DNA of 64,000 nucleotides from an uncultured Armatimonadia bacterium. Lineage in GTDB: Bacteria; Armatimonadota; Zipacnadia; CAVVLO01. The stretch spans positions 864,001 through 928,000 of the forward strand of contig CAVVLO010000002.1 in NCBI GenBank assembly GCA_963749155.1, in the 5' to 3' direction. The notes under the pieces are model-generated. The model ran no database searches. It was not told the origin of the DNA and saw nothing but the letters and a program-made list of their open reading frames with translations. The stretch's first letter is position 1, and every line of letters begins with the position of its first letter. Both the position numbers and the translations under genes were made by a program. Below are positions 25,730-48,902 of this stretch, piece after piece.

Positions 25730-25782
25730 TGGAGTCACCTCTTTCCGCCGCCAGGCGGAAATATGATTGCAGCTCACTTTGC

Positions 25783-27830: not shown

Positions 27831-27906
27831 AGACTACGCCTCGCTTCTGACGGGTCTCTCAATCAACTTCCTGGATCGAACCTGGGAAGCATAAAAAAGG
27901 CTCCCG

Positions 27907-28693: not shown

Positions 28694-28741
28694 GCTTCTT
28701 TCACCTCGGCCGCCCGCAGCACAGGCAGAGTGCAGCGCTTA

Positions 28742-30209: not shown

Positions 30210-30238
30210 AGTATACGACACGATATGCCCAGTGTCAA
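30210..30238 (-). promoter_or_regulatory. Sigma70 promoter for pilMNOPQ
   Basis: TTGACA-N17-TATACT, about 135 nt upstream of pilM. Confidence 0.8.
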
Positions 30239-30263: not shown

Positions 30264-33200
30264 TTAGTCCTCCTGGATCATTGTCTCATAGTCAGGCATG
30301 ACGGAGGTGAAGTAAACATCCATCCCTCCGTACTCGCCCGGTGCGGCGTCGCTGACTCGGGCACTGGTCCAGAACACCCAATACTTCGTCCCGATTCCAG
30401 AGTCTCCTCCCCCATTGTCATAAGGAAAATCTTCTGAAGTTACATTGAAGTCTCCCTCATGCACGAGGTGGTGCATTGGAACCTGGGCGGGTCTGCTCCA
30501 GGCGACGTCGTCAGCTGTGCCAACCCCTAGCTTGTACATCAACTGGGAGGTACGCTCGAAGCCGAGTTGCTCCCAGAACAACGCGAACTGGTCGGCGGAA
30601 TAACTCGAAACCAGGACTGGATTATTATCATCCCGGACCGAGGTCGTCGCTCTGTAAGTGAAGGGCGAATAGGCGATGCTGAGCCAGGCGTCAAAAACTC
30701 CAAGCACTGGACCCGAGATAGGCCTGCCAAATTGCAGCCGGCCATTTACCGGGTCGATGGTGGCTTGCATACCTGCCAGCAGCGGATTGGTTAGCGTTAC
30801 CCTGAATACGCCGCTGGTTGGCTCATAAGAACCTATCGCCGGTATCCAGGTCAGCTCTTCTTCGTGCTGTACCCCTCCTGCAATGTAATCCAGGAAGATC
30901 CGGGGGTCGTCCCCAGTACGCACATTCAGGAAGTTATCGGTGGCCAACCAGTCGAGATGGCGCGTCCAGAAGACTCGCCGGCTCGTATCCACGCCAAGCA
31001 GCTCGCGAGGATTATTACCGGCTACGCCAGTAGTGCCGATGCGGGCAAAGGGCAAACGCCCGTAGTTGAGCGCCGCGTTGCTGATCTGGTTGAACACGAA
31101 GCGAGACAGATAGACATCTTCGTTCCCGAAGTTGGAGTTATACCCCGTGTAGGCGAGATAAACATACTCGCGCCCACCACTGTCGGTAAAGAAGAAGCCG
31201 GAAGGGCTCCTTGGTGTAGCTGAGGCTGGCCGCGCGCGGCCGGATGACCGGCGTTGCCAGGCCAACCAGCGGACTGGACCAGCTATCGGTAGAGTTAAGG
31301 GCAGCCATCCCGATAGGCATTGGATTCGCTTGCACAGTAGCAGCGCCCGCATTCACCATCAGACCGACAAGCTTGGGGGTGCCTCCGACATAGGAAGTGG
31401 CGCCAAGCAGATGCAGGCCTGGGATCTGGGGCACTCCGGCAGGCGCAGTTACATCTCGCAGGGCAAGCTGGGTGCTTGTTGCCCCCTGGAAGGTCAGCTG
31501 CACCGCGGCAGCGCCTTCCTGGGAGACCCAGAGTTCCTGCATCATAGCTGCGGGATCTGTGCTCGAGGCACTGCGCTGCAAGTAGGTATAGACCGTCCCA
31601 CCCAGCTCCACGATGTTGGAGCAAGGCAACAGGCCGGCTGGCCCTGCTATAGCAGCCGGGGCCGCGAAGTTCCAGTGGCGGTAATTGGGATCTATGCCTC
31701 CCACAAACGGCAAGCCTTGCTTCCACCAGACTTGTCCAGCCATGTCGGCATAAGTAATCGCAAGCCGGCTCGAGACATTGGCGGCATCCGGCACGAAGGT
31801 GGCGCGTGGCCGGTAGGCGTTCGACACCCAGCTTCCCAGGTCGCCCGAGAGCGGAGTCTCAGTGATGGTCGTCTTCAGGTTTACCTGAGCCTGCAGAGGC
31901 TCGGCGCCAGCCGTGCTCGAAAGCTGCAGGATACCCGAATAGGTCCCAGCCGGCTGGCCGGTGGGCACTGGATCGGGCAAGTTCAGTCCAAGCCTGAGAG
32001 GCACAGGATTCACCTTGCCGGCAAGCCTGCCCACATATTGGGTCACAAGCGGCGTACTGGTAAAGGGATCCCAGTGCAGGTTCGTGCCAAATATCGGCGC
32101 GAATTCTGTCTGGCCGGACTCCGGCGTACCGATGCGACGCAGCAAAGCGCTCGCGGCGATATTAAGTTCGGAGCCAGCGCCAAGCACCTCAATCGGCACG
32201 TTACCGGCGTTCAACACTCGCAGGTATTCGTCCTGGGAGAAGCGGTAGGGCCCATAAGGCGCAGTCGCATCGACCCCTGGCGAAACGAGGCCAAGGTCGA
32301 TGGTGTTTTGATCGGTATCCGCCGAGAAGACCTGCGGTACAGAGACGCGCAGGTTGACCAGGTCATAGTCTTCACCCAGAGCGACATTCTGCTGTCCATA
32401 AAGCGGAGCCCCACAGATGGGACATTCACCAGGATGCTCCGAGGCGTCTACTTTTTCGCCGCAGAAGGGACAGATCATAAAGTCGCCCGAGACTGTGAAG
32501 TCGTTATCGCCAACGCTCGACAGGCCATCTCCAAGCACGTCCGAGAAGGCGCGCAGGCTGCCCCAATAAGCGGCCGGGACTCCTTCAGAGGCCAGAAGCT
32601 GTGATATGGCTGAAGAACCGGCTGTATAATTCAGGCCATAGGCATCGCCGCTGGGCGGCTGGAAGTTGGGCACTCCAATGCTTACCCTGATACTCATTGC
32701 GCCCCGGTTCTCGACCCTCGGCAGGTTCGGGTTGGTGGCACTTGCACCCTGGGTTGGATCCATCGGATTATCAGCATAAGTCGCATCAGCCTCAACTCGG
32801 CTGTTGCCCCAACCACTCCAGACAGTCCACACCTCGGGCGAGACGGTAACATCCTGCCTGGTGAGCGGCACGGGCTGTTCCCAGTTGCCGGCATTACCAG
32901 GATACGGCCAGGGGATCTCGGACGTAGCCAGTGACTTGGCCAGGCTATACTTGACTTCAGTCACATTGGAATTGCCGCCATCGCTCCAGGTATCAAAGGT
33001 GAAGCGGGTGGAAATATCCTCGGCATCGGTGCCAGTCCGCACTTCCAGACGCAAACTGTCGATAGCAATTGTGACGCCAGCCAACTGGTTGAAACGCGAA
33101 CGGCCCGCGTCATAATCTCCGTCATCTTCGAAGCAAAGCAAATCATACTGGGTGGCTGTATCAAAGCTGATAGTCCAGTGGCGGGTATGCATATCGATAC

Positions 33201-35257
33201 TTCCGCTGGCATCAGGCTGTACCCAAAGGCGCACATGGGCATTGCCCGGGCCATCCAGTTTCACCGGCATCGTGAAATAGGAAGCTTCCCGGTTTTCGAG
33301 CCGGATCCACTTGAGCTCGCTGCGCGCGCCCGGCCGCACTCCAGTGTCGTCCTGCGAGAAGGTCGTGATATCCACAAAGGGATCGGCATTTACGCGCGTA
33401 TTGGGATTGCGCAGGTCGAAGAGTTCGCTTATCTGCTCTACTGGCCTGTCGTTGGCACCGGGATTACCGTTTGGCTCGTCATAGTAATAACCAGGTGTAT
33501 CTACGCTACTGACAAAGAAGTCTGTCTTCAGCTCCGGCCAGTAGTCCCACCAGAACACGGTATCATTCGGGTCGGCGAAGGGATACATATACTCTGACTT
33601 CACATACCCAACATGGCCCTCAGTGCCAGCCCTTCGGAAAGCAGAACCTGCCTGCGGTGGCATCACAGTCGGGTCGGTCGGGTAGATGAAAGGCCCTGCG
33701 CCAGTTACGTTGATATAGTCATCTTCAGGCCTGGCTGCGCCTTGCGGTGGGGCCAGGAACCGCTGACCAGGCCGAGTGATGATATCTCCGCCTCCAGGCA
33801 GTGTCTTGCTGAAAGGCGCAAGCGTGGCGCCTGGCACTCCCCCAACAGGGGGTATCTGCGCGCCTGGCTGGTTGGTGTAGAAGACATAAAAATCTCCACC
33901 TGTCGGCCAGAGAGTAGCCGCCGCGCCGCGGTCACGCACCATAAAACTGACTTCATTTACATAGATGTTTGCCGAAGCGCCCATTGGCGCGTTAAGGTCC
34001 AGGTTGACCGTTACCCCGGGTATCAGATTGAGATTGGCGTAGGAAAGGCCTCCTGGATCGAAAAACATATCCATCCACATATAGCCATCAGAACCCAGTG
34101 GCTGTGTAGACAAAAATATCCGGGAAGAAAGGTGGTAGACCCGGAATCAGCATGGTGAGAGTGACATTATAGACAACCGGCTCCCAGGCCTGCGTGTCAG
34201 GGCCAGAGAACCAGGCGGGCAATTCGCCATTCAGGTCTGCAGGCGACAGATTCGCGAAACCAGGATCTGCCGGGTCAACCAGCTCGGTGTAAAGGGCCAG
34301 GTCAGGTTCCCACAAGGCGCCTGTGGTGTTGTCAACACGCACCGATACGAACTGGTCATTGTCATAAGTAGCGCCAGCGTGGGTGTCGGTTTCCCATATG
34401 CTTCCGATACCGGCATATTCATAGCCAAGACCATGTGGGCCAGTGCCACCTGGCGTTGGATACAGCAACACATAGGCATTTTCGTGTTCGTCGCCTGCCG
34501 GCGCATCCAGGAAACGCACAAACCAGGGCATTGCCTGATGGGTCACAGGATGCTCCGGACTAGTAGGAGTGATTACATTATTAGTGTTTACAAGCGACAT
34601 CAGGACATTGGCGTCAGCCGTGGCAGTGAGATGCCTGCGAGGCGGGGTCGAGGTCGGCACCATCCCGGGTTGGACCAGTTCAAGGCGTACGCGCGGGTTG
34701 CCCCCTGTAAACTGCCCCCAGATATCGGAGGGATAGAGTTGCTCGTTCTGCAGCCCGTCTCCGGCTGCATCAAAGTCACCAATTGACAGGAAGAAAGGAT
34801 CGCCCGGATGCAGTGGATGCCAGGGCAGCAAGTTGTCGCCGGAGATATTGTAAGCAGTGAAAGTCCACTGGTCTCCATCGGAGGCGAAGACATTGAGCAT
34901 TACCGAAAGCCCATTGCCCACGAGCGGCGTGCCGAGGGCTTCTGTATCGATAACCGGACCAGAAGCCAGGCGCAGAGTCGCGTTGCCGCCATTAACTTCA
35001 ACCTCGTAATCATCTGGCACGAGGCTCTTGGCATCTACGACGCGTAGATACTCGAGGCCTCCAAGGCTCGTGTTGCCGGGGTCGGGCACCGGATAACTAA
35101 GGCGAGGCCTGGAATTGCCTCTCCAGATGGTCCCATTACGGTCCTGACCCAAATCTACTCTCAGATAGGGATCAGCCCCGACCAATGTGGCCAGGCTTGT
35201 CAGCAGGGCCACCAGTATTATCAGTCTTGCACCAAGGCGCTGTATCACTGCTCTCAC
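30264..35257 (-). CDS. Giant (~1,660 aa) secreted pilus-associated protein with an internal zinc ribbon; split by +1 frameshifts near 34114 and 31200
   Basis: ORFs 34088..35257, 31138..34113 and 30264..31352 fuse after removing one T (T5 run) and one C. Signal peptide; beta-rich; CPFCG...CPICG. Confidence 0.6.
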
Positions 35258-35320
35258 TCCCTCAGCCGAAACAAACTCGACTCGAGCCGGACCGGCCTTC
35301 AGGCCGCTCCGTGGGCAACA

Positions 35321-38300
35321 CTATCTGCGTATGACGCAGGCAGGCTGCTCGATGGGGTAGGTCTTGGCGTCTTCCGCCAACAAGTTCGGATCAGGCATAA
35401 CTTCCAGGATGACCTTTGCCGGCGCGGCCGGCCCAGTCAACTCGAGCACTTCGCTTGAGCGCATATTCCAGCCTGTTGGGTTGTAGCAGTGGTTCACAAT
35501 CAGGTAGTTATTGCTGTCAAGCTGCTCGGCCCATATGGGCTTGAAGGCCTTCCACGGAGCGCCCGGCCCAGGACCGATATTGTCGACACCTGGATCGGCA
35601 TAATAATCGGCTGCCGTGTAAGACCAGATAAGCTGGTTGGTGATGGCGTCTACCACGAAGACACCCTGAATAAGGTCTTCGAAGTCGGCATCGTTGTTTA
35701 CATACTGGGCTGGGGTAGGCGCGCCGCCGGTCCAGTTGTTTATGTCGCGCTCGTACATCGAGCCGACCAGGATAAGCCGGCCGTCTCGCTGGATGCGCAC
35801 CATCTGGATATGGCCCATCCGGGTCGCGAAGAACATCGGTATAGGTATGGGATGTCCGCTGCCTCCGGCCATGGTAAAAGCTGTACCTGCCGTATATTCG
35901 GCAGCTCCATAAGGCGGTGTGGCCATCATCAGGGGAATCAAAGAAGCTGGATCAAGATTCAATACCCGGTTGATACGGCATACCCGCCCATCATTCTCGA
36001 CCCCTGCCAGCACCTGAAGACTAAGCTGGCTAACCCAGCCGGAACCGGCCATCAGATAATTCACAGTTGTAGGCTTGTTGATGGTCACGGTCGAATACCG
36101 GGCCGCGAAGGGCCGGTCTACTCCAGGCATCAAAGCCCAGGTAGACGAGAGGACGAACGTCGGCGAAGTGATATCTGGCCTGCTTTCGTAGTGGACGGTG
36201 GCAAGCAGCCGGTGGTTGCCCTGATCGGCCACCACGGTAATAAGCAAGTAATCGTCCACAAGCCCATCGCCATTGAAGTCTACAGGCAGCTCTTCCCGGT
36301 CCACGTTAACCGGATCTCTCACATCGAGGATGTCCGAGTTGAAACGCCCAGCATTGTCTACCGGCCAGATGAGCTGACCGCCGCGATCAAACTCGACCAC
36401 GCGGTTGTTGCCCGTATCAGCCACCAGCAAGTTGCCTGTATGGAGGAGCTTCATAGCCTGAGGGCGATTGAAGCTGCGCTCGGCATTGGCGTCCATATAG
36501 CCTGCCGGAGCAACCTCTCGCGTGCCTACGGCTTCCCAGGTGACCTTGCCATTGCCCGCCAGTTCGACGATGCGGTTGTTGTCCGCTATCAAGGTCTCTG
36601 CGCTATACAGACCAACCAGGAAACCACTGTCATAGGTCGCGCCATCGTGCATCTCGGCGGTTGTATAAAGCCCACCCGAGCCAGGTGAAGCAGCGGCGCT
36701 GAAGACCGCCGTCACGCCGGGAGCGCCCATAAGGTTCTCGAAGTAGTTGCGGAAGTTCGCCCTCGGCCAGACATACGGGCGCACGCTGTCCTCGCTCGGA
36801 TCCCATTCCAGAGAAAGCAGCCGGCCGTCATCAGGCACCCCATCGAGGTTGAGATCCTCGCCAGTTGGCGCGGTACCCGTGTGGATGAGGAAGTTGGTCG
36901 CCGAAAGCGAGCCGCGGGTTGGCCCCACATCATAAGGCAGGAAGTGCATCTCCTGATGGGTGGTGCCACCCAGGTCATCGTAAGTAACGAGGACCTTGCG
37001 CCCCTCATAAGGATCGGCGCCCGCATTCAGCTCGATTTTGCCGGTATCTCCATCAACATTCGCGATAACAGCGCTGATATCCACAAGCCCGGTCGGGGTG
37101 TAGACCTCGAGGGTAGTGGCCACACCCGTATCGATTGGATATCGATGGGTCTGTAGCACATAGGGAGTATAAATCCAGCGCGCCAGGTCGGTCTTGGAGC
37201 GCACGACCTCTACACCATCCACCTCAACGATAAGCTCGCGGTTGTAGATGGAGCCGCACCTGCAATCTATCAGATCACCGGTCGCAAGCTCCTTCAACCC
37301 GATGATATTGCCAGCGGCCTTGGCATCGAAGAGGATGACCCCGTTTTCGTAATCCACGACATACTGATCGCCGCGGACGACGAAGGGATTCCCCGGCTCG
37401 AGTGGATCGGGTATCAGGCACTCGACAGTGGAAAGCTCGCTGACACCGACATTCGAGAACTTTATGGCTAGCGGCGCATCGAGTTGAAGCGCGGCGATGC
37501 CGGGCCATTCGAGGCCGGGCAGGCCCCCGCTGACATCCCACCAGTGAGCCTGCATGATGGGCGTCCTGTCGAGCCAGGCCATATTGCCGTCGAGATACCA
37601 GGACTGCAATTCATCACTAGGTTGCAGGCCCATCGATTCGGGATTGAAGGACCAGACAGGCTTGCCTGTCTCCGAATCAAGCCAGCGCCCGTTGGAAATC
37701 GACTCAGGCTGACCTGCGGTTACCGCAGGGCTGGTTGGCGCGAGGGTGCCCAGGGTGGTGACGATGGCATCGCCGCTGCCCATCTGGCGCACCCCGGTAA
37801 AGCTTTCGGTATGCGAGCCACCGCTGCCATAAGTTATATCCCAGTCGCCGCCACTGGCGCCTTCGACCACCACTATACCTGTCAGCGGATCGAAAGTATT
37901 ACTTGCGCGAACTTTTACAGTCTGCGTGCCAACGGTATCAGCGTCGATATCCCGGGTTGTGTCAATCGGCGCCTGCGTAAGCGTAACATGCCTTACAGCG
38001 CCTCCCTGCAGATAATCAAGCTGGACTACCTGCTGGTCATCGGGCGTATCAGGCGTGCGATATATCGTCCGATAGATAGCCGAACAACCGGCAGGCACCG
38101 TCACATCCACACTGCCAGGCCCTGTTACGACAACGCTTAGCCCGTTCGCTTCAACCTTTACAGGCTCGACATGGACATCGCCCAGGCCGCTTGGATCGGC
38201 ATCGAAGCCGAACTCGATTGGCTGGTTGGAGACCCGGTAGATGCCACCGGCGCCATCGGTCCACTTTTCGGGCGTATGAATCCAGTGCATCTCGTTATCT

Positions 38301-40432
38301 ATGGTTGTTCCGGAGCTGGTCGTATAATCAAACCGCACTCTGTGGCCCTGATAGGTGCCGGATATTAGCAAATGGTTGGTCTGGGCCGGGTCGGGAATAT
38401 AGTCCACGCCATCAACCAGCGCTACCCAGTTGCCAGGGGTCATCTCGACTTCTACCGAAGTGGTAGTGTTGCCCTGGCCGCCTTGCCATTCATACACTCG
38501 ATACGCCCAGGCCTTCGTCCAGCCATTGGGATTATCAAAGGTGGGATAATCGTCAAGGTCGATTTCTTCACCTGGATCGATCTGGTAGGTCGTCCCCCCA
38601 TAAGCCGTCAGGGTCAAGGTATCGGTCATTGCGTTGTTGACTTCGCGCCGAACAGCGGCAACGCTCGGAGCAGGGGGCTTGCGCCAGTCGGCTACGGCAT
38701 CAGCCGTGTTGGTAAGAGGCCCGACGTGAGAACGCTTTGCGCTGCCGTCTCCATAGGTGGCAGAAGGATCGGGATACTCCCAGACCAGATCGCCAGTAGC
38801 CAGCTCATAAGCACGGAAGCCCGTTACCTGGGCTGTGGTGAGGGAATCCTCATATTCACAGGCCACGTAGACCACATTGCTGTGTAACACAGGGCTCGAG
38901 ATGGCAACCGGGGTTGGCTCCGAGCCTGGGTTGTCGCCAATAATCTCATCCCAAAGCAACTGGGGCGCATTGAGCGGGTTGGGCCTGGCCAGATAAGCCC
39001 CGATATAGCCTTCCTGTGCCCCTGGGTCTTGCGTGGTGAACACGACAACATCCAGGTTGGGCGTAACTGGTGGCGGGGCAGCCGGATCTTCAACCGTGCC
39101 TACGGCGGGCGAATTATAAAGAGCTACGCCCGGCATTGTGTCAGTCCAGAGGGCATCGGCCGGCGAGCCGGTGACATAATCGGCTACGCCATCATCCGCA
39201 TAACCGTCGTTGTCCAGATCGCCCTTGGGAGCAGCATCAAAGGCTCCCACCAGGGAGTTGCCCACCACATAATCAGGTTCATCGCGCATCATATACACGA
39301 CGCCCTTGTATTCGGTTGGCGTCGACCGCGATGGGCCAGCAAGTGGAGCATACCAGCGCAGCGAAAGAGGCAAGGTCAGATCTTCGATGCTGCTGGCATA
39401 ATGGCGCGGCACAGCGCCCTGCTGGGTCCATTTGCCACTCAGGTTGCAGGAGTTGTAAAGCAGCTTGATGTCGCCGACTGTGCTGTCCGGTGGGGCTGTA
39501 AGGCCTATCTCCATCCAGCTGCTGACATCGCAGAAGACATCGCAGCCAGACATTATTACATTGCCACTGCCATAAGCGCCGCGCACCAGAGTGGCATCTC
39601 CGCCAATCTGCACGACCTGGTGCATCTCCTGCGGGTCATAATCGGTGACCCAGTCGGTGCCCCAGGTGGTATCTCCCATATTGGCTATCTCATAGGTAGA
39701 CAGCTCGAAGGGCGTGGTCAACATAGCGTCGGAAGGGTCCACCGCATATTTCCAGTAGACACCTGGCATACTGGCGCCGCCATCATCGAAGAACTGCAGA
39801 CGCGTGATAAAGCGAGAGGAGTCCTCCACAAAAGTGCCTGACGTATTGTTGTAGCCGATACGCGCGCCGTGGCAGTTGTCAATCCACAAGGTCGCGCCCG
39901 CATCTACGATCTGCTTCAGATACCGCAGGTCGTTGTCGCTGAACACGACCGGATGGTGAGTTGTAATCAGTACCAGGTCGAAGTTGCCAAGTTGGGTAAC
40001 AGTAGAGGCGTTAAGCGGTACTTCCCAATACTGAGGCATCTCCTTGCTTATAAGTCCGCCGGGCGCAGCAAAGGTCCAGGGCTTGTAGAGGCCTGTCATA
40101 CCCCAATAGCCAGCTTGGGAAGCAGGTGTACCGGCGCCTCCTCCTGCGTGACCTCCGTCAAGCCACCAGTCCCAAATCTGTTGCGTGACCAGAATTGGCG
40201 CCAGGGGATTGTCAAAATCCCAGTTGGCTGGCAGGAAGTTGGACCTGCGCATCGCCAGTATGATATTCGGATCAGGGTTCTCCCAGTTGGTCGACTGGAT
40301 AAGCAACTGGCAGACCTTGAACGTATGCTTCTTCTGAGTTGGATAGTTGAAGATTTGCGCCAGGGCGCCGGTAGCGAAGCTAGCCAGCAATCCCATCAAG
40401 ATAAGCGTAATCAGCACGCGCGACTTCTTCAT
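35321..40432 (-). CDS. Giant (1,703 aa) secreted protein with PQQ-like/NHL beta-propeller segments; candidate PilY1-like adhesin
   Basis: Signal peptide; N-terminal DUF4159/GATase-like alpha/beta segment; LRW...STP...GVVY and SSPVLHSNVVYV blades; NHL motifs LIADNNRIVE, LVADTGNNRVVEFD, VADQGNHRL; DxDxDG motifs. Confidence 0.7.
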   Translation of the reverse strand: MKKSRVLITLILMGLLASFATGALAQIFNYPTQKKHTFKVCQLLIQSTNWENPDPNIILAMRRSNFLPANWDFDNPLAPILVTQQIWDWWLDGGHAGGGAGTPASQAGYWGMTGLYKPWTFAAPGGLISKEMPQYWEVPLNASTVTQLGNFDLVLITTHHPVVFSDNDLRYLKQIVDAGATLWIDNCHGARIGYNNTSGTFVEDSSRFITRLQFFDDGGASMPGVYWKYAVDPSDAMLTTPFELSTYEIANMGDTTWGTDWVTDYDPQEMHQVVQIGGDATLVRGAYGSGNVIMSGCDVFCDVSSWMEIGLTAPPDSTVGDIKLLYNSCNLSGKWTQQGAVPRHYASSIEDLTLPLSLRWYAPLAGPSRSTPTEYKGVVYMMRDEPDYVVGNSLVGAFDAAPKGDLDNDGYADDGVADYVTGSPADALWTDTMPGVALYNSPAVGTVEDPAAPPPVTPNLDVVVFTTQDPGAQEGYIGAYLARPNPLNAPQLLWDEIIGDNPGSEPTPVAISSPVLHSNVVYVACEYEDSLTTAQVTGFRAYELATGDLVWEYPDPSATYGDGSAKRSHVGPLTNTADAVADWRKPPAPSVAAVRREVNNAMTDTLTLTAYGGTTYQIDPGEEIDLDDYPTFDNPNGWTKAWAYRVYEWQGGQGNTTTSVEVEMTPGNWVALVDGVDYIPDPAQTNHLLISGTYQGHRVRFDYTTSSGTTIDNEMHWIHTPEKWTDGAGGIYRVSNQPIEFGFDADPSGLGDVHVEPVKVEANGLSVVVTGPGSVDVTVPAGCSAIYRTIYRTPDTPDDQQVVQLDYLQGGAVRHVTLTQAPIDTTRDIDADTVGTQTVKVRASNTFDPLTGIVVVEGASGGDWDITYGSGGSHTESFTGVRQMGSGDAIVTTLGTLAPTSPAVTAGQPESISNGRWLDSETGKPVWSFNPESMGLQPSDELQSWYLDGNMAWLDRTPIMQAHWWDVSGGLPGLEWPGIAALQLDAPLAIKFSNVGVSELSTVECLIPDPLEPGNPFVVRGDQYVVDYENGVILFDAKAAGNIIGLKELATGDLIDCRCGSIYNRELIVEVDGVEVVRSKTDLARWIYTPYVLQTHRYPIDTGVATTLEVYTPTGLVDISAVIANVDGDTGKIELNAGADPYEGRKVLVTYDDLGGTTHQEMHFLPYDVGPTRGSLSATNFLIHTGTAPTGEDLNLDGVPDDGRLLSLEWDPSEDSVRPYVWPRANFRNYFENLMGAPGVTAVFSAAASPGSGGLYTTAEMHDGATYDSGFLVGLYSAETLIADNNRIVELAGNGKVTWEAVGTREVAPAGYMDANAERSFNRPQAMKLLHTGNLLVADTGNNRVVEFDRGGQLIWPVDNAGRFNSDILDVRDPVNVDREELPVDFNGDGLVDDYLLITVVADQGNHRLLATVHYESRPDITSPTFVLSSTWALMPGVDRPFAARYSTVTINKPTTVNYLMAGSGWVSQLSLQVLAGVENDGRVCRINRVLNLDPASLIPLMMATPPYGAAEYTAGTAFTMAGGSGHPIPIPMFFATRMGHIQMVRIQRDGRLILVGSMYERDINNWTGGAPTPAQYVNNDADFEDLIQGVFVVDAITNQLIWSYTAADYYADPGVDNIGPGPGAPWKAFKPIWAEQLDSNNYLIVNHCYNPTGWNMRSSEVLELTGPAAPAKVILEVMPDPNLLAEDAKTYPIEQPACVIRR

Positions 40433-40530
40433 TGGCTTTTCCCCCTGGACCCCACGGGTCAAGGTACAGACGAAGTTCAAGTCCTTCGAGCCTGGCTCGA
40501 AAGCAGCGTCCAGCTAAACTCTGCCAGGAG

Positions 40531-43227
40531 CTATTGCTCCTCGCTCATTATCAGCATGGGCGCGCAAGGCAGCGCCGGTAGCCTGGGCAAGTTCTCTTCG
40601 GCCAGGTCCAGTGTGCCATTAAGGTTATTCCACCTGTTCATCCTCAACGAGTCATCGAAGGCATAGTCAACCGAGCGCCAGGTACCGGTTCCCGAGCGGT
40701 AATAGGACCACTTGTTGGCCCAGTCCTGGACCAGGCTCATTGGGGCCGTGTAGTTTTGCGATATGGCGCCGTTGATGCGCACCCCATAGTTGTAGCGCAG
40801 GAAGCGCTGGGTCAGGCTGTTGCGATCTTCGCCCGCGTCCATTACACCGTTGTAGTTCAGGTCGAACCAGGTGTAAGTCAGGTCGGCAAGGCGCTCGTCC
40901 CACCATTCGCCCGGCACGATTGCAAAAGTGCCCTCTTCGGCGTAGATAAGCGCGCTGATAGTCAGGATAAGACCAGGCCCGGCAGGCGCCATCGTGCCAC
41001 CGCTTGCCGCCAGTCGCTCCAGCTTCCAGTTGGCATGGTAGTAGTTGAAGCTGCTGGTATCCGCAAGCCGCACCTGGTAGCGCGCGCCTGCTGTGTTATC
41101 GAAGTAATCCTGGTCGGCGCCGGCTGCGGTGTCCGCCGGGAAGGAACGCAGCTCCCAGGCGGGATACACGGCATTCGACTGCCAGGGCGCAGGGCCTGGC
41201 GGATTGGGCAGCGGGGGGTCGTTGAAGACATAATTGGTAATGCCCCCGCCCAGATCGAAGTCATACAGAGTATTGGCGGTCGTTGCGCCTGTCAGCAGAT
41301 TGGTAGACTGCACTCCAAGTGCCACTCCCCCGGTGAAGCTGCCGGTAGGCAACGGGGTGGACTCGCTGAATTCGGCGCAGTGAAGCATCGTGAAATACAG
41401 GTCGCTGCCGGCTGGGACATCCCCGGCGAGCGAGCGGCCGTTGAGCCAGTTGACCAGTATCCCAGCACCGGGCTTAACCCGGTAATGGCGCGGATCCATA
41501 GGCGCAAGCTGCTCGCGCTTTATGAGCACGGTCTCCGGCGCCGCTTCGGCCATTGCCGAGGGATCTACCAGTACATGCTGGCGCGCCAGTAGCGCGCAAG
41601 CCGAGTTCTCATAATCATAGAGGTCGATGCCTGGATCCACATCAGAGGGCCTCAGCAAGCTGCCCTTGATGATAATCGAGCCATCAGACACGACCGTCAG
41701 GCTTCTGGGCTGGGCCAAAGTGGACTCGCCAAGCAATCCCCAGACTTTTACGTTGCCCTGAGCGTAGATGACCCCGTTTTCAGGATAAGGATAAGCCAGC
41801 CAGCCGCTCCGCTCTTCGGCGCTGCGGTTTTCGTCGTAATCGCTTCTCTTGACCCAGATATCATCGGGAGTAATGTACAGCTCTACCGAGGGCGCCTTGG
41901 CGATATCTACCAGCTCATAATTGCGCTGGCTCCAGCGGCCCGGCTCGTTGAGGGCCAAAGGCATTTTCGGTTTGCCTGCCGAATCGCGTGGCTGGGTGGT
42001 ATCCACGAGATCAGTGCCGTTGTTTATCAGGTAAGGCGCGCTGGTCTGGATATCGTCCGCCAGATTGCCAGGTGTACCGTTGTCATCGAAATACCACTTG
42101 CCCGCATCTCCGCCACCCGAGGTAGCCTGGGTATAAAGCTCATCAGCCCTGAGGCCTTCCAGCGCGAGCGCCATATACCGGCTGACATTGCCACTGCGCG
42201 CGGAATTGGTTCCCAGGCTGGGCGGTTCGACATAATCAACCGACCGCTCGGGATTCACTGTCGCATTGTTGGTCGCAAGCGAATCGAGATAGGTGCCGTC
42301 GCCGAAAGTGTCAGGCATAACGTCGAAGGTAGGCGCAATACTTGGTACCGCCGGCACAAAGCCGCCCCCATCAACGCTGACATCGACCGAGGTGTTGGCA
42401 TCGGCATTTATGATATTTCCCGCGACCAGAAAATCGTCGCCGCGCAGAATATCGGGATCTCCACTATCGGAGAACAGGCTGAGCCGGTTGACGCCGTGCC
42501 AGAGCAGGTCGGTATTGATCCGGATTGGGCCCTGCCAGGCGCTGGCGACATCTTCCGTGGCGCCGTCGTAAGCGCCATTCTGATTGTAGTCAATCCAGGG
42601 ATTAAGCCCGAACTCGGCCGCAGCCCCGCTCCGGTCCTTATTGGTAATAAAGAGCATATAGTCGGTAAGCAGGATCGGCTTGTAGGCGACCACTCTGCGG
42701 AAAACCGAAGGGTCGTCGTCCACGCGGCCTATACAGGTTATCTTGATGAAGCGCGATAGCTCGGCGCGCCTTTGCCGCTCGAGGGCGGAAAGGCCAGCAG
42801 GCTCTGCCAGTTGCCCATGAGGCCAGTATTCGACCTTGAGCAAGTAGTGGCCACGCCCAAATTCGGGGTTATCGGGGCTGTACGGATCGGGATAACGCGT
42901 GAAGCCCTGAGCGGCCCAACCGCGCAAGTCCTCGATCTCGTCATAATAGCCCGCGAAGAGTGGACTCGCCGGATCTGGCGCTGGCTCTGGCCGCCAATCG
43001 GCGCCGCGTGGACTGGTGGTGAGCATCCTGTCCGCGTAGCGCAGTCCCGCTTCAGCGAGGTTTTGGGCGACCAGCCCTGACTCGGTCCTCGTCGTCGTCT
43101 GCATGTTGAAGGCGACCGTCGCGACGAAAGCCGCGGCGATGAGCGCCAGCATCAACATCAGTATGACGGCGAGTAGCAGCGCCTGGCCACTCTCTTCCGA
43201 CTTGCTTGTCAACCTGTTTGCTTTCAT
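40531..43227 (-). CDS. Very large PilX-like minor pilin (898 aa) with probable beta-solenoid (ComZ/DUF4900-like)
   Basis: EESG|QALLLAVIL (no Glu5)...AQNLAEAGLRYA; GVIYAQGNVKVWG...LTVVSDGSIIIKG...INGAISQN. Confidence 0.75.
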   Translation of the reverse strand: MKANRLTSKSEESGQALLLAVILMLMLALIAAAFVATVAFNMQTTTRTESGLVAQNLAEAGLRYADRMLTTSPRGADWRPEPAPDPASPLFAGYYDEIEDLRGWAAQGFTRYPDPYSPDNPEFGRGHYLLKVEYWPHGQLAEPAGLSALERQRRAELSRFIKITCIGRVDDDPSVFRRVVAYKPILLTDYMLFITNKDRSGAAAEFGLNPWIDYNQNGAYDGATEDVASAWQGPIRINTDLLWHGVNRLSLFSDSGDPDILRGDDFLVAGNIINADANTSVDVSVDGGGFVPAVPSIAPTFDVMPDTFGDGTYLDSLATNNATVNPERSVDYVEPPSLGTNSARSGNVSRYMALALEGLRADELYTQATSGGGDAGKWYFDDNGTPGNLADDIQTSAPYLINNGTDLVDTTQPRDSAGKPKMPLALNEPGRWSQRNYELVDIAKAPSVELYITPDDIWVKRSDYDENRSAEERSGWLAYPYPENGVIYAQGNVKVWGLLGESTLAQPRSLTVVSDGSIIIKGSLLRPSDVDPGIDLYDYENSACALLARQHVLVDPSAMAEAAPETVLIKREQLAPMDPRHYRVKPGAGILVNWLNGRSLAGDVPAGSDLYFTMLHCAEFSESTPLPTGSFTGGVALGVQSTNLLTGATTANTLYDFDLGGGITNYVFNDPPLPNPPGPAPWQSNAVYPAWELRSFPADTAAGADQDYFDNTAGARYQVRLADTSSFNYYHANWKLERLAASGGTMAPAGPGLILTISALIYAEEGTFAIVPGEWWDERLADLTYTWFDLNYNGVMDAGEDRNSLTQRFLRYNYGVRINGAISQNYTAPMSLVQDWANKWSYYRSGTGTWRSVDYAFDDSLRMNRWNNLNGTLDLAEENLPRLPALPCAPMLIMSEEQ

Positions 43228-43266
43228 ACTTGTGTACTCCTCACTGGAGGCTCCAGGAGAGTCCTG

Positions 43267-44871
43267 TCAGCGCAGCTTGCTGCCGACCTCGAACCGGTCG
43301 TGCAATACAACGACCTCAGGTCGCTTTATTCTAGCCCCGCCGACCGCGCAAGTAACAGTGACATCAATCAAACGCTGCGTCTTGTAGCTGATTACGACGA
43401 CATCGTTCCTGATTTGCCGGTTCGGGTTGGCAATTGACGTATCTCTATAGAAGTTGTCCCTGTAAGCGAATTGCACCTGGATGGTGCTGCCAAGCGGAGG
43501 CGCCCAGGCGAAAGCCAGCGTGCCGGTTATGTAATCAATTGTATAAACATGATCGGTCCGCATAGGCGACATAGGCAACTGCTCGACGCTGGAATACGAT
43601 ATCCAGTCTCCAGTCGGCATCAGCAAGCGCACCTGCTCGCTGCCGGCTACCACAAGCGAGCCGAAAGGCCGGTCCAGCGTGAACTGGGTCGTCCCCATTC
43701 CGAACATGTTGCCATCGCCCAGGAAGGTGTTCTGCCAGGGCACTGCGCATTTCACTACGCCCTGCTTGCTGTCCCAGGTAAAGTGTACCGGGCGCGTTAC
43801 ATCCCAGTAGAAATTGGTCGCTGGATCGGCTGGATACGAGTCAAAAATCAGCACTGAGTAATCATTGTCCGCGGGATTCCAGCGATATATCTGGATATGC
43901 GGATCGTCGAACTTCTCCTGGCCGCCCAGATCAGAGAACCAGGCAATCGGCCAATAGCCGGGGCCGATATACCGGTCGCCGAGGTTGGGCGTGTTGTCTT
44001 CGTACCAGTCGGCATACTTGGTGCGATAGTCCGCCCCGCCGTTGCCTGCCGCCACCCGTTCGCGATTTATCTGCACGGGCCGGAAACTGCAACCAGGCAC
44101 TACGTACCTGTCACCAGCGGCGCGCAACTCTTCGGTCTGGGGCCACATCGCCGGAGTACCGACTGGATCCTGCAGGTAGGCCGCGGTGTCGGTCTTCTGC
44201 TTCTCCATCAACGAGTTGGAGAGGTTTATCCAATAGTCTCTTTCGGCCGGGAAATCGAGGTAGAACCACGGATCCATCCAGTTGGGGATGTTAGGATTAG
44301 CCTCGATAGTCCCGTTGCTGTCGAAATCGGCAAAAGGCTGGAAATGCGTTTTGCGGAGCTGCACCAGGGTATAGAGCCGCTGGATGTCCGGCACCCCGCC
44401 ATCGCCGGTATACGTCCATTCTTCTCCCAGGTCCGGATTGCTGTATGCGGTTGGCCACTCGGCCTGGGCCAGCGCCGGCTGAGTCGGGTGCGGGTAATAA
44501 CGCAGCGGCGAGGTCCAATAGCGAGTGACATAGCTATCGGGCCTGAGCGGCTGAGCCAGCGCTCCATTTTCCGTCACTGGCATATAGAGATCTATCAGCC
44601 AGGGCGTGTCGGGATAGGTGCGGGCATAAAGCGCTGTAGTAAGCGCGCTTGAGAAATCCTCGAGTGCGAGCTGAGCATTGGACTGCGCCGCCACGCTTGC
44701 GCGCGAGGTGCGCAGCCAGTTTATGCCCTCCACCATAGGCTTGAAGAGCAGCACGAACAGGATCGTCAAGAGTGCGATGACGACCAGCAGCTCGACCAGT
44801 GTAAAACCTCTGGTTGCTCCAGGCGCGCTACGACCCGCGGCCAATCTGGTGCTCATCCCTCGCTTAGCCAT
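43267..44871 (-). CDS. Large PilW/GspJ-like minor pilin (534 aa)
   Basis: RG|FTLVELLVVIALL class III signal; position between PilV-like and PilX-like genes. Confidence 0.75.
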   Translation of the reverse strand: MAKRGMSTRLAAGRSAPGATRGFTLVELLVVIALLTILFVLLFKPMVEGINWLRTSRASVAAQSNAQLALEDFSSALTTALYARTYPDTPWLIDLYMPVTENGALAQPLRPDSYVTRYWTSPLRYYPHPTQPALAQAEWPTAYSNPDLGEEWTYTGDGGVPDIQRLYTLVQLRKTHFQPFADFDSNGTIEANPNIPNWMDPWFYLDFPAERDYWINLSNSLMEKQKTDTAAYLQDPVGTPAMWPQTEELRAAGDRYVVPGCSFRPVQINRERVAAGNGGADYRTKYADWYEDNTPNLGDRYIGPGYWPIAWFSDLGGQEKFDDPHIQIYRWNPADNDYSVLIFDSYPADPATNFYWDVTRPVHFTWDSKQGVVKCAVPWQNTFLGDGNMFGMGTTQFTLDRPFGSLVVAGSEQVRLLMPTGDWISYSSVEQLPMSPMRTDHVYTIDYITGTLAFAWAPPLGSTIQVQFAYRDNFYRDTSIANPNRQIRNDVVVISYKTQRLIDVTVTCAVGGARIKRPEVVVLHDRFEVGSKLR

Positions 44872-44886
44872 CTCTTGCTCCCTCGC

Positions 44887-45600
44887 TTAAGGCAATACAT
44901 AGTCGCGCAAGTCGCCCCACTCAAGCGGGGGATTGCTGCGATGATTCTCGCCGGCCGTATAATCAGGTGTTTTCAGCATCCTGACCGACCCATCGAGGAA
45001 CAAAACCAGGTCTCTGGTGCCAGCGGGAGTGTCATACGCCCCCGCATGAAGTTCGCACCAGGTGACCACCGTATTGTCAATTGGAAAACGACTTGCCAGT
45101 TCTCTGGCGCGCTCGGGATCCTCGGCCATAACCGGGATGTCCGGCGCATCAGGCTGGTACTTCCATTCCTCAACACCTGCAGCCAGCCCGTTGGCATCCT
45201 GCAGCATATAGCTGACATAATCCATCGGGACATCGCTGTCATTATGCTGCCTGTCTTCGGGGCAATGCAGATATTGCTTGCCCTTCAGATAACCCATCCG
45301 GTTTTCCGTGCCGGCGCCAGCAAGCGTGGTGTCGAAGGCAAACAGCGCCCACAGTCCAAGCCCGCCTGCCAGCGGATCTCCAGCGTTTATGGTCGGATCG
45401 AAGGGAGGAAAGCCCCCCTCATCCAGCGTGTACATCCGCATCGAGATAGCAATGGCCTGCATATTGCCCATACAGGTCATCCCTCGAGCGCGAGCATTGC
45501 CCCCTTTCGTGAAAACGAAAAGGATTGCCGACAGGATAGCGATGATCGCTATCACCGTAAGCAGCTCGATTATCGTGAAACCTTTACGCTTGTTGCTCAT
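44887..45600 (-). CDS. Type IV pilin-like protein (DUF1559-like, H-x-DG C-terminal motif)
   Basis: KG|FTIIELLTVIAIIAIL, ARARGMTCMGNM, LHCPED, WCELH...LFLDGSV. Alternative GTG start at 45609. Confidence 0.8.
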   Translation of the reverse strand: MSNKRKGFTIIELLTVIAIIAILSAILFVFTKGGNARARGMTCMGNMQAIAISMRMYTLDEGGFPPFDPTINAGDPLAGGLGLWALFAFDTTLAGAGTENRMGYLKGKQYLHCPEDRQHNDSDVPMDYVSYMLQDANGLAAGVEEWKYQPDAPDIPVMAEDPERARELASRFPIDNTVVTWCELHAGAYDTPAGTRDLVLFLDGSVRMLKTPDYTAGENHRSNPPLEWGDLRDYVLP

Positions 45601-45617
45601 ATAGCTCACATCCTGCC

Positions 45618-47165
45618 TTACAGGGCCTCAGGCTCGAGTAGAGTGTCGAGCTGGATGTAGCGGGTCATATCGCGGTCGTGCCAGATAGCCTTCACGCCCA
45701 GCGACAGACCGGTCACCGACAGCAAATCGCCTGCGCCGATTGGCCCGCCTCCCGCGTTCACGATCGTTGCGGTATAGGGAGCAGGACCAGGCGAGATGGT
45801 AAGCTGGCGTGTTTCGACAATCGACGCCGTGCTGGCGTTGTTGTCGTCATCCCACATAAAGCTGACCAGCACGACTTTGCCCGCCTCGCTTCCCGAAAAC
45901 TCCAGGCTAGCGTCAGGGGCGATTGCAGCGAATATATATTCGTTGCCCAGCGGCGCTGCCGCGGTCGTATTGAAGTACTGGGCCTGGGCTCGCTGAGCGA
46001 GCACCGCCCACTCTTCCATCCCGCGGTAGAAGACGCGTATTGGCCGATTGGCCAGCGTGTCCGAGAACAAGACCACGCCGTTCTCGTAATCCACCGAATC
46101 GGGGGTATGCAGCAGGCCATCGTCCAGCGTAACGCCCAGGACGGTAGTCGCCATACCTGGCAGGTCGCCATCGTCCAGGAAAGTTATGTCGGTGCGCATC
46201 TCGCCGTAAACGTCCAGCACGTCGAACTCGCTGAGGATGTGCCAGTCGCGCACGCTGTACGAATAACGCACGAACTGGCCCTGGTCCTCGCCATAGAATC
46301 TCAGCACGCCGCCATCGTCATCCAGGCTGAACTCGGAGTTGGCGGCTGGATTGCCACCTACCTCGGTGAACTGCCTGCTGATGCGGATCGAACTGTCCAC
46401 GATGAACTCAAAGTCCGGAAGGCCTGCCACCGGCAGCATTGTGTCATCGTCATTGGCCGCCAGGGTGAAGGTGCCAGTGTAGGGCACATAAGCCGCGGCA
46501 GCACTGTCATAGTAGATGCAGTTCAGTTCCATATTCCGATCGTAAGGCACTCGGTCGAATCTGGCATAACCGGCACGCTGCCAGTTGACGCTGCCATCGC
46601 CCTGCTCGGCGGTCGTCACATAAAAATGTTGGTAGTCGTGTTCGTCGTCGCGCAAATCGTAGAAGGCATTGTTGACCCGGGTATAAGGCGCCCAGCACTC
46701 GACTGCAGCCCCTACCTCGGCCGGACCAAACAGGTTGTGCGCGACGGAGACAGTAGTGCCGAGAACAGGCGATGGGATTCGGAGCCCCTCGCCTACGACT
46801 TCTCGTACCTCTGTCATATTAGGCCCGAAGCCATCAGGGTCTATATCGGCCAACTTCAACCAGTCAGGCTGGATCTCCCAACCGTTTACCGTCGGGCCAA
46901 GAGCGTTGCCGTCTTCATCCACCACCGGCATATTGGCGGTGGTGTTCTGGATGCCCAGCGGGGCGCGCTCGGGCGCAGCCTCCAGTTGCTGGAGCAACCT
47001 GTCGGCCAGCCTGGTGGCGACGTTACGATTCTGGCCGCTCTGGACCAGGTTCAATCCCATCGGGAATACGCGGAATAACGCGTAGAGCCCAAATACCAGG
47101 ATGAACACTGCCACCAGGACTTCGACCAGGGTCATACCTTTCTGGTTTATCGCCCTATTTCTCAT
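45618..47165 (-). CDS. Large PilV/GspI-like minor pilin (515 aa)
   Basis: KG|MTLVEVLVAVFILVFG; C-terminal VKAIW...QLDT strand. Confidence 0.75.
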   Translation of the reverse strand: MRNRAINQKGMTLVEVLVAVFILVFGLYALFRVFPMGLNLVQSGQNRNVATRLADRLLQQLEAAPERAPLGIQNTTANMPVVDEDGNALGPTVNGWEIQPDWLKLADIDPDGFGPNMTEVREVVGEGLRIPSPVLGTTVSVAHNLFGPAEVGAAVECWAPYTRVNNAFYDLRDDEHDYQHFYVTTAEQGDGSVNWQRAGYARFDRVPYDRNMELNCIYYDSAAAAYVPYTGTFTLAANDDDTMLPVAGLPDFEFIVDSSIRISRQFTEVGGNPAANSEFSLDDDGGVLRFYGEDQGQFVRYSYSVRDWHILSEFDVLDVYGEMRTDITFLDDGDLPGMATTVLGVTLDDGLLHTPDSVDYENGVVLFSDTLANRPIRVFYRGMEEWAVLAQRAQAQYFNTTAAAPLGNEYIFAAIAPDASLEFSGSEAGKVVLVSFMWDDDNNASTASIVETRQLTISPGPAPYTATIVNAGGGPIGAGDLLSVTGLSLGVKAIWHDRDMTRYIQLDTLLEPEAL

Positions 47166-47896: not shown

Positions 47897-48014
47897 AGCC
47901 CATTCCTCCATTTGGAGGCTTTAGCGCCTCCGGCTGTTCAAGTTATACCCCGCAGTCCTGGCCGGGAAACTCGCACAAGACTCAAAAAATCGCAAAAAAT
48001 GGGAAATAGCCTGT

Positions 48015-48878: not shown

Positions 48879-48902
48879 TTGCGTTACTCCCCCCGGAACC
48901 AA

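Follow-up and report, generated by a model that had tools for sequence, protein, structure and literature searches.

Core minor pilins of type IV pili are usually small, and their known enlargements mainly concern the X/K subunit. The accessory pilin PilB of Streptococcus sanguinis is reportedly modular, carrying a C-terminal graft. As far as the available text of PMC7541494 describes the Myxococcus clusters, PilY1 fills the slot after PilX, and a hydrophobic helix without Glu5 is a stated feature of PilX. A W-R-E tail is the part that docks PilY1 on PilX (PMC13711793), and the accessible part of PMC13759059 describes distinct core sets for competence and motility in cyanobacteria.

The locus analyzed here lies in a window of 64,000 nucleotides (the whole stretch of DNA examined), in which all features given below are on the minus strand. 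It is a type IVa pilus cluster kept across Armatimonadota and includes PilV-, PilW- and PilX-like pilins (V, W and X) and two giant secreted proteins (G1 and G2). The gene set, PilT included, is complete on one strand when PilN, PilO and PilP are counted by position. Pfam and NCBIfam searches recovered the extension ATPase PilB (51453..53246; PF00437 and MshEN, with TIGR02538 at 629.6 bits, below the cut-off of 675.65), the retraction ATPase PilT (50245..51384; TIGR01420 at 497.7 bits, above the cut-off of 319.1), the platform protein PilC (48958..50190; PF00482 in two stretches), the prepilin peptidase PilD (48015..48902; PF06750 and PF01478), PilM (28742..30067; PF11104), and a 310-aa STN/N0-only protein followed by a 555-aa secretin (23309..25960; PF07660, PF21305 and PF00263). 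All Pfam matches of PilB, PilC, PilD, PilM and the secretin were above cut-off. The PilN-, PilO- and PilP-like genes (25783..28742) occupy the position after pilM, as in relatives, and gave no Pfam match. A one-base break interrupts the pilN-like gene at 28540, and the pilO-like gene is spread over two ORFs; tblastn of the relatives' PilN and PilO against the window returned no match and thereby did not confirm these breaks. Two further pilins are present: a 228-aa DUF1559-like protein (47225..47911; PF07963 and PF07596 above cut-off), whose position ahead of V is kept in relatives, and a 240-aa protein in the V/W interval (44887..45609; PF07963), whose location differs between them. A sigma-70-like promoter match of 11/12 in the G2/pilM interval (30210..30238) is a consensus match only, such sites numbering 9 against 9.1 in shuffled sequences.

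The sizes and order in the original prediction (V 515, W 534, X 898 and G1 1,703 aa) agree with the ORFs, and no full characterized family in Pfam or NCBIfam accounts for any of the five proteins. V (45618..47165) has a class III signal with Glu5 (PF07963) and scored 36.7 bits against the PilV family TIGR02523, below the cut-off of 52.2 and over positions 1-61 of the 139-position model only. Its structural model resembles solved pilins and pseudopilins, GspI-like chains included, at residues ~35-63 and 478-515 (Z 5.0-6.6). The helix at the N-terminus and the strands at the C-terminus make up the pilin fold, and four tandem beta-sandwich copies are inserted between the two. Foldseek searches of PDB and BFVD with the V model as a whole gave uninformative TM-scores of 0.05-0.15. 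W (43267..44871) likewise has a class III signal with Glu5 (PF07963, TIGR02532). It matched no curated PilW/GspJ model (Pfam E<=0.01, NCBIfam E<=0.001), its TIGR02599 match was N-terminal only and below cut-off, and it owes the PilW label to gene position. The PilX/PilK-like pilin X (40531..43227) follows W; its hydrophobic N-terminal helix lacks Glu5 and begins G-Q-A-L-L-L, the GQ being kept in the family, and its sequence has a long insertion ahead of the last strand, as in ComZ. Pfam, NCBIfam and PDB sequence searches with X gave no match, ComZ included.

The short motif that had been noticed in four of these proteins is the core of a beta-sandwich of 55-75 residues. As first written, with four residues after the Asp, the pattern has no match in the proteins, the actual spacing being D-x3-G. 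The corrected strict pattern matched twice in the five proteins vs 0 times in the 3.23 million residues of the genome's other ORFs, and a looser pattern chosen after the fact matched 8 times in ~5,400 residues where ~0.4 were expected. Four of the nine examples quoted at the outset are well supported as module copies (both from V, YTIDYITG of W and YVVDYENG of G1; HHalign probability 92-97%), while the others proved weaker, unsupported or not separate: IDPVNG of G2 reached 90% with a phage-like profile and 43-70% with the pilin-derived one, FTWDSKQG of W (34-48%) and VDGDTG of G1 (29-35%) are weak, FDPLTG of G1 lacks statistical support, and YEPTSG of G2 was placed by alignment as a hairpin inside the IDPVNG copy. 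Three copies had been overlooked (V 150-222, V 392-441 and a weak one at G1 686-705). The module thus occurs four times in V, once clearly and once weakly in W, once clearly and two or three times in degenerate form in G1, once in G2 (twice in most relatives), and not in X.

In V, copy 1 (46500..46718; aa 150-222) reached an HHalign probability of 80% with the phage-like profile and 84-95% to other V/W copies, in a part of the model with low pLDDT. The corresponding phage-like values were 96% for copy 2 (46251..46403; aa 255-305, FSLDDDGGVLRF), 92% for copy 3 (46017..46238; aa 310-383, SVDYENGVVLF) and 95% for copy 4 (45843..45992; aa 392-441), the last also aligning at 47-95% to the remaining strong V/W copies. 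The clear copy of W (43459..43659; aa 405-471, YTIDYITGTLAF) gave 97% with that profile and 69-95% to the four V copies; these five are mutually homologous at 47-95%. The weak W copy (43738..43899; aa 325-378, FTWDSKQGVVK) gave 34% with the V/W profile, 48% with the phage-like profile and 1-68% pairwise. An ESM Atlas search with W 385-475 yielded no usable match, and a PHROGs search of 15 V proteins found nothing in common.

Profiles built without G1 or G2 sequences located the module in the giants. The V/W-only profile matched G1 at residues 1017-1042 (94%) and the G2 copies at 94-96% and 43-70%, with X windows scoring 13 at most; the phage-like profile, drawn from 15 copies in five non-pilin proteins, singled out these places too, at 80-97%, and gave nothing in X. 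Among X windows, 0 of 57 (V/W-only) and 0 of 43 (phage-like) matched. These comparisons bear out the claim that four proteins share one homologous module which X lacks, and not the alternative of unrelated hairpins. Single-sequence HMM searches at 10 bits were sparse in the giants (9 of 92 G1 and 1 of 44 G2), reaching no more than 10 of 92 and 2 of 44 on iteration, and pattern scans of genome and metagenome contigs with single proteins found no relatives.

Sequence comparisons bear out the proposed link to phage tail and baseplate proteins, and fold comparisons suggest it at middling Z; the module belongs to a family in which phage-tail-like proteins share. In protein P0139, the stretch that holds the module also matches DUF2460/TIGR02217/phrog_807 (PF09343 at 1.8e-22), and the baseplate-like P0087 and P0102 also tie it to phage-type families (reciprocal profile 80-97%). 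In the V model, residues 310-382 are similar to domains of phage tails, necks and nozzles and to TSP4 XD2/XD3 (Z 4.5-7.2). This copy 3 superposes on the small beta-sandwiches XD2/XD3 of CBA120 TSP4 (7rfv, 7rej), the insertion domain of the R4C distal tail protein (8gtc; TIGR02217/DUF2460 family), a domain of the YSD1 major tail protein (6xgr) and N-terminal domains of podophage tail-assembly proteins (8ck1, 9efk), over 57-70 residues at rmsd ~2-2.9 A and 9-22% sequence identity; all Z values are below 8, a range that according to the tool may reflect merely a common arrangement. The T9SS SprA domain 6h3i_A, a likeness also suggested originally, falls within these ranges and ranked 36th (Z 4.5; 63 residues at rmsd 2.1 A and 22% identity). 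Against PDB sequences the module profile had no direct match (best E = 1). According to the accessible text of PMC8825819, protein-protein assembly in TSP4 and T4 gp10 relies on XD2/XD3, and sugar binding is proposed for the phage Dit insertion domain in the available parts of PMC10276861 and PMC7296036. Phage XD domains act as trimers, which would be unlikely for single-copy tip pilins.

G1 (35321..40432, ATG at 40432) consists of a signal peptide, a DUF4159-like domain, a PQQ/BamB-type propeller interrupted by modules and an NHL-type propeller, and ends in a QPxxAxR-like motif. The family-conserved copy (37208..37480; aa 985-1075, YVVDYENGVILF) reached 94% with the V/W-only profile and 93% with the phage-like profile, and is a confidently modeled all-beta insert (block pLDDT 84-95). 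A degenerate copy with VDGDTGKIEL (36938..37180; aa 1085-1165) is also all-beta (block pLDDT 65-93) and is an internal repeat of aa 655-722, a similarity equally high in 1 of 1000 shuffles. Another degenerate copy (38285..38470; aa 655-716), overlooked at first, is the second-best place in G1, with 45% in single-sequence HHalign. A possible copy with FDPLTGIVVV (37793..37975; aa 820-880) lies outside the top windows and is without statistical support; its pattern is kept in P0208, a 62%-identical relative. Fold searches with a model of G1 625-1180, in which residues 625-875 are mostly below pLDDT 50, listed propellers only, and Foldseek against BFVD was uninformative (TM-scores 0.05-0.15). The idea of giants built as module arrays did not hold: both are mostly beta-propellers and other domains, with 1-4 modules each, placed within propeller blades or between them.

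The weakness of several G1 copies and the propeller-only fold searches would fit a motif that is the generic hairpin-plus-strand of small beta-sandwiches, present in G1 and G2 by convergence or independent recruitment and with no shared role. The motif is indeed not special to the pilus system: stalk repeats of the CshA, Big_9, cadherin-like and Rib types contain its short core as well. These have the same Y-x-I-D-x-x-x-G-x-I-x-F core and subsequent V-x-Y strand, but reach just 5-16 bits per copy against the module profile, gain significance only through the sum of many repeats, and unlike the module are ~100-residue Ig-like units in long arrays. Unrelated proteins of the same genome with PGEWYLD-type hairpins also score 8-10 bits. 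This explanation nevertheless seems improbable to us: family-level profiles reach 90-95% at single fixed places while every remaining window in X, G1 and G2 is background, the reversed G1, G2 and X give no match, and the clear G1 copy sits in the confidently modeled insert.

G2 (30264..35257) had been described as a secreted protein of ~1,660 aa. That length is right once two breaks are bridged, in that reading with X at both gives 1,661 stop-free residues, but the assembly holds three ORFs of 389, 991 and 362 aa. In contigs of near-identical strains, one base is missing at 31202 in 3 of 4 runs and at 34098 in at least 1 of 4 runs; in two further runs the spanning piece holds a single gap somewhere along its length. 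The split probably reflects two assembly errors. A pseudogene is disfavored because relatives encode the protein in one unbroken ORF (1,330-2,529 aa) and further genes of the window are split in like manner. The C-terminal part is propeller-like with an inserted module, followed by a DxYY..P strand and a variable tail. Copy A (30669..30860; IDPVNGRLQF ... AWLSIAY) is the one quoted above, and the second copy B of 17 of 21 aligned G2 rows is missing from this G2. Among 11 G2 relatives we found Ig-like, Golvesin_C, NPCBM-associated and DUF11 domains, which are typical of adhesins.

Across the phylum, the V-W-X-G1 order with G1 directly after X was found in 31 of 40 chosen loci and throughout a further comparison, and the N-terminal half of G1 in 145 of 201 sampled genomes. 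The G2 C-terminus was absent from 29 of 29 genomes of G1-less lineages and present in 10 of 10 G1-bearing controls; three genomes of f29 have G1 without a G2 C-terminal match. G1 and G2 were jointly lost in several lineages, about four times, with V, W and X retained. A quick FastTree of 65 PilX rows (clade support 93) matched loss of the W modules to only one of these losses; long W is retained in three lineages without giants and V modules in all, and therefore the modules do not serve solely to hold the giants. Co-loss of W modules and giants was considered as support for docking and dropped, the seeming three lineages being one clade and the three other losses keeping long W.

We lean toward the view that Armatimonadota use these proteins as the priming/tip set of their main retractable pilus, which is of type IVa, with the giants as an optional accessory adhesin pair. 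By analogy with known pilus biology, PilD would mature V, W and X, which would form the core trimer starting the fiber; X, probably with an inserted domain like that of ComZ, would cap it, and the V and W modules would project as arms from the tip. Gene order and joint loss suggest that G1 and G2, presumably exported by Sec, may act jointly in a PilY1-like role. The modules would most likely be structural spacers and protein-contact surfaces, like XD and fiber-adaptor domains in phage tails. Rather than the undescribed scaffold type first proposed, the locus is a variant of a known machine, on whose pilus the giants may sit.

A somewhat unlikely arrangement would keep the modular pilin tip and place G1 and G2 outside it, as co-regulated surface or periplasmic proteins or extruded cargo, with modules as passive spacers or sugar-binding decorations. 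It would account for the repeated loss of the giants, their lack of a PilY1 domain or tail, the sugar binding proposed for the fold-matching Dit domain, and one lineage (G044, G167) in which the G2 C-terminus is on another contig or distant from G1. The size of the complex also favors it: V, W, X and G1 amount to ~392 kDa without counting G2, a mass that, with G2 on top, a standard secretin would have difficulty letting through. The position of G1 right after X, which is PilY1's slot in the Myxococcus clusters as described, and the domain family common to pilins and giants argue against it. A complex prediction with the W head as partner of the G1 module region and the G2 C-terminal part scored 0.00 with controls that did not fold, and speaks neither for nor against contact. 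Unlikely, too, is a branched tip of >500 kDa with phage-tail logic, in which one phage-type adaptor domain, copied into the core priming pilins and both giants, would let these dock mutually and replace the PilY1 tail-in-pocket; either assembly would have to take place beyond the outer membrane, or the secretin would have to be enlarged, perhaps with the extra STN/N0 protein's aid.

We regard it as very improbable that the set primes a DNA-uptake (competence) pilus of the Thermus PilA1-3/ComZ kind, in which X would be the receptor for DNA and the giants would be accessory factors. The best pilin match of V is the Thermus competence pilin 6qvf (Z 6.6), X resembles ComZ (as available in PMC6561018) in its missing Glu5 and long insertion, and cyanobacteria keep separate core sets for competence and motility; yet the adhesin-type domains of the G2 relatives, the failure of a PDB sequence search to match X with ComZ, and the presence in this genome of another type IV filament locus, of normal size, speak against it.

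Returning to the preferred priming/tip set, V and W of a whole phylum are enlarged by tandem copies of a domain whose family is otherwise known from phage tails, and a giant pair without a PilY1 docking tail comes in addition. If the giants assemble on the tip, this would be a second way of attaching adhesins to type IV pili, and how such mass crosses the secretin would be a real problem. The question is testable because the phylum includes cultured fimbriate members such as Fimbriimonas ginsengisoli (PMC4072686, as far as its available text describes it). The module definition offers an annotation handle for proteins now without a family, and the literature searched, subscription papers and supplements aside, contained no description of the locus or module.

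Compared with the FimU-PilV-PilW-PilX-PilY1 complexes of Myxococcus xanthus (PMC7541494) and Kingella kingae (PMC13711793), as far as their accessible texts go, the gene order is the same (pilin-V-W-X-large secreted propeller protein), as are the class III signals, an X without Glu5 and the accompanying PilB, PilT, PilC, PilD, PilM and secretin. G1 and G2 have type I signal peptides (judged by eye at the N-termini) and follow X as PilY1 does. The differences are that V, W and X here are 500-900 aa with inserted domains, and that two giants, dispensable in several lineages, stand in place of one PilY1. A Pfam search of G1, the G2 pieces, 12 G1 relatives and 11 G2 relatives found PQQ_2, NHL and ACSF4-type propellers and no PilY1 propeller domain, and the G1 and G2 C-termini are without the W-R-E-hydrophobic tail. 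ComZ with PilA1-3 of Thermus thermophilus (PMC6561018) and cyanobacterial PilX with its beta-solenoid (PMC13759059) likewise have a pilin fold interrupted by a large insert before the last strands and an enlarged K/X-type cap; in the accessible accounts of those systems the X-type subunit alone is enlarged, whereas here V and W are enlarged too, with tandem beta-sandwich modules. Modular type IV pilins such as Streptococcus sanguinis PilB similarly display extra domains, but in Armatimonadota it is the core priming pilins that carry them, as tandem inserted copies of a domain common to their non-pilin neighbors.

The window is part of contig C2 in an assembly of seven contigs totalling 4.17 Mb. 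On its minus strand we found, in order, pilB, pilT, pilC, pilD, a 228-aa pilin, the PilV-like pilin (V), a 240-aa pilin, the PilW- and PilX-like pilins (W and X), two giant secreted proteins (G1 and G2), pilM, N-, O- and P-like genes, an STN/N0-only protein, and the secretin. The sequences agree with the original prediction on the lengths of V, W, X, and G1 (515, 534, 898, and 1,703 aa). By scanning GTDB genomes with a PilX pattern, we confirmed 92 relatives, 80 of which were kept. The taxa named among them were Armatimonadota or its sub-groups, WS1, Abditibacteriota, and Zipacnadia; some carried no taxon, and none had another phylum in its record name. GTDB places WS1, Abditibacteriota, and Zipacnadia within Armatimonadota. 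The 310-aa STN/N0-only protein (25028-25960, minus strand) is encoded upstream of the secretin (23309-24976, minus strand), and because a comparable pair was also present in two other loci (L036 and L071), it may represent a conserved accessory to the secretin and not a broken gene. A near-consensus sigma-70 promoter match lies immediately past the G2 stop (30210-30238, minus strand); this putative promoter could drive pilM-Q separately. Elsewhere in the window, downstream of aro genes (12815-20407, minus strand), are encoded a PASTA Ser/Thr kinase, an ECF sigma factor, a zf-HC2 anti-sigma factor, a VIT-vWA protein, and a DUF4139 protein.

The second giant had been described as a protein of about 1,660 aa; it is 1,661 residues long, with no stop, when translated with an X residue at both breaks, although in the window's assembly it is three ORFs. 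The base at 31202 was missing from near-identical strains in three of four runs, and that at 34098 in one of the four runs shown, two further runs having one gap each, at a place not listed, in spanning pieces. The split of G2 is likely an assembly error, because near-identical strains lack these bases, the joined reading is stop-free, and the G2 of one relative matches two of the window's frames. Three more minus-strand genes are split, namely a metallo-beta-lactamase/beta-CASP gene (61308-62802), a pilO-like gene (26758-27830), and a pilN-like gene (27907-28742), which suggests uncorrected one-base errors in the assembly; the base at 28540 (pilN) was missing from near-identical strains in three of four runs. 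Inside G2, at about 32400-32470 (minus strand), we also observed a rubredoxin-like CxxC...CxxC zinc knuckle with Pfam and NCBIfam matches below the cut-off.

Four of the five proteins had been proposed to share a short motif, the written pattern of which contained one x in excess. The corrected strict pattern matched once in W and once in G1, and 3.23 million residues of background contained no match; of the orthologues, 12 of 105 V, 43 of 110 W, 0 of 113 X, 5 of 91 G1, and 2 of 41 G2 proteins had it. The motif by itself is a poor definition of the module, and we therefore analyzed the module, a beta-sandwich of 55-75 residues, by profiles. When 55 V and 56 W sequences were aligned, four V segments and two W segments showed the same layout. 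The four V segments and W 405-471 matched one another in all ten pairs (mutual HHalign probability 47-95%), and W 325-378 matched the other segments at 1-68%. Homology of the module copies is shown at the sequence level.

In the AlphaFold2 model of V (15 sequences, mean pLDDT 63), the N-terminal helix and C-terminal strands jointly matched solved pilins and pseudopilins (Z 5.0-6.6), and the pilin fold is shown in this predicted structure to be split around an inserted region. Residues 310-382 of V matched the small beta-sandwiches of the HCIV-1 and P23-77 capsid proteins (Z 7.2 and 6.0), TSP4 XD2/XD3 (Z 5.2), the YSD1 tail protein and the R4C distal-tail chain (Z 5.0), SprA (Z 4.5), phage nozzle, neck, and tail proteins, and a Streptomyces injection-system baseplate, all with the caution that a Z under 8 may reflect merely a common arrangement.

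A profile restricted to the V and W segments was moved along the family alignments of G1, G2, and X. It found one place in G1, 1017-1042, at 94% (4 of 110 windows), the remaining windows scoring at most 12.3, and two copies in G2, a C-terminal copy B at 94-96% and a copy A at 43-70%; no match was found in 57 windows of X. Copy B was occupied in 17 of 21 aligned rows and is absent from the window's genome. Used as an HMM on single sequences at 8 bits, the same profile hit 7 of 47 G1 proteins, 3 of 44 G2 proteins, and 4 of 15,281 background ORFs, with no hits to reversed sequences and 2 to 440 shuffled G2 sequences; iteration over single sequences gave no further spread. The best single-sequence places in the window's G1 were 1019-1044 (92%), 686-705 (45%), and 1126-1152 (29%), the latter two forming an internal repeat whose score was reached in 1 of 1000 shuffles. 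The G1 motif at 847, originally quoted as an example, was not singled out by single-sequence search; its pattern is kept in a 62%-identical relative. A model of G1 625-1180 (90 sequences, mean pLDDT 62, most of 625-875 unreliable) showed, between propeller blades, all-beta inserts modelled with confidence (about 965-1175), and fold searches with it returned propellers only.

Against 1.84 billion representatives, the V/W profile gave 310 matches at E<=0.001; the 150 listed comprised 132 V-family proteins, the window's V included, and 18 others, most of which were CshA, Big_9, cadherin-like, Rib, or similar repeats at 5-16 bits per copy. Five of the listed non-V proteins had fuller module copies, the best at 20-30 bits. 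In the archaeal protein P0139, DUF2460, TIGR02217, and phrog_807 matched the same residues as the module. P0087 and P0102 look baseplate-like by their C-terminal pattern and had only weak PHROG matches. The other two, P0119 and P0137, are unannotated 2,500-aa proteins with the best non-pilin module copies, and P0137 is mostly acidic and coiled-looking. A profile from 15 copies of these five proteins found V four times (80-96%), W (97% and 48%), G1 (93%), and G2 (copy A 90-93%, copy B 94%), and nothing in X; because its five source proteins had been retrieved by the V/W profile, its independence extends only to G1, G2, and X. By these sequence criteria, the module of V, W, G1, and G2 is a phage-tail-type domain. 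The resemblance to phage tail proteins noted in the original prediction holds, although the core motif is also generic, occurring in CshA, Big_9, cadherin-like, and Rib repeats.

When we examined the distribution of the giants, 35 of the 41 genomes in the class sample, the window's genome included, had a G1 match. In the phylum sample of 201 genomes, the W profile matched 198, often over the pilin N-terminus only, and the N-terminal half of G1 matched 145. For the latter, there was no match in any genome of families f16 (19 genomes), f21 (4), and f34 (7) or of genus g13 (3), and the 12 genomes of family f41 were all missing from the matches. Among 46 hand-picked genomes, the G2 C-terminus was not found in any of the 29 from lineages without a G1 match and was found in all 10 controls, the window's genome, and one of six f29 genomes, four of which have G1. 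G1 directly followed X in 31 of 40 loci hand-picked across families. Both W modules were missing in f16, f21, and f41. A quick PilX tree grouped these families as a single clade, and W stayed long in three further losses of the giants. Joint loss of the giants is shown; the pair formed by G1 and G2 thus behaves as optional, and the pilin modules are independent of it. In f16 and f41 loci lacking the giants (L051, L052, L058, L059, L060, L070, L163, and L164), the PilX-like protein is enlarged to 1,209-1,366 aa; L059 has two X genes in tandem, and PD40-repeat proteins lie downstream of X in f41.

Another type IV filament locus, whose pilins are of normal size, occurs in the same genome (G000; L165:5964-17912; contig C5, 572000-591900). 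It encodes PilB/GspE and PilC/GspF, a minimum of five small pilins, an ice-binding-like adhesive domain, a PilM-like protein, and a secretin; pilT was not found in the stretch read. Genome-wide, 36 ORFs match the prepilin pattern, mostly 200-240-aa DUF1559-like pilins in tandem clusters.

A domain survey of 27 chosen proteins gave DUF4159, PQQ_2, and NHL in G1 relatives. G2 relatives outside the window's class had Golvesin_C and PQQ/ACSF4-type propellers, one also with NPCBM-associated and DUF11 domains, and those within the class mostly had no domain match. The last conserved motif of G1 resembles the strand that closes its NHL propeller. Extreme sizes in some lineages include frames of 5,132 and 3,611 aa with a G2 C-terminus, G1 of up to 2,517 aa, and V of up to 998 aa (G203:C267, G065:C1, L157, and L156).

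Literature searches of article texts found no description of the locus or module. The retrieved portion of the Fimbriimonas genome paper names no pilus genes beyond generic pil genes and 79 PulG-like genes (PMC4072686), and that of PMC11696919 treats pili of Thermocrinis, not Armatimonadota. The tip set is a real, phylum-wide, unstudied T4aP variant with a shared phage-tail-type domain. PilC/PilY1 carries a W-R-E tail that docks it on PilX (PMC13711793), whereas neither this tail nor a PilY1 domain was found in the G1 and G2 proteins surveyed; the two giants are a putative accessory adhesin pair. By analogy with the Myxococcus system (PMC7541494), V, W, and X would most likely prime and cap the main retractable pilus, with V and W displaying arms of the small domain, and X would be enlarged in the manner of ComZ (PMC6561018) or cyanobacterial PilX (PMC13759059). 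The module may serve as spacer and contact surface, since its phage relatives XD2/XD3 bind partner proteins (PMC8825819); for Dit insertion domains, sugar binding has been proposed (PMC7296036 and PMC10276861).
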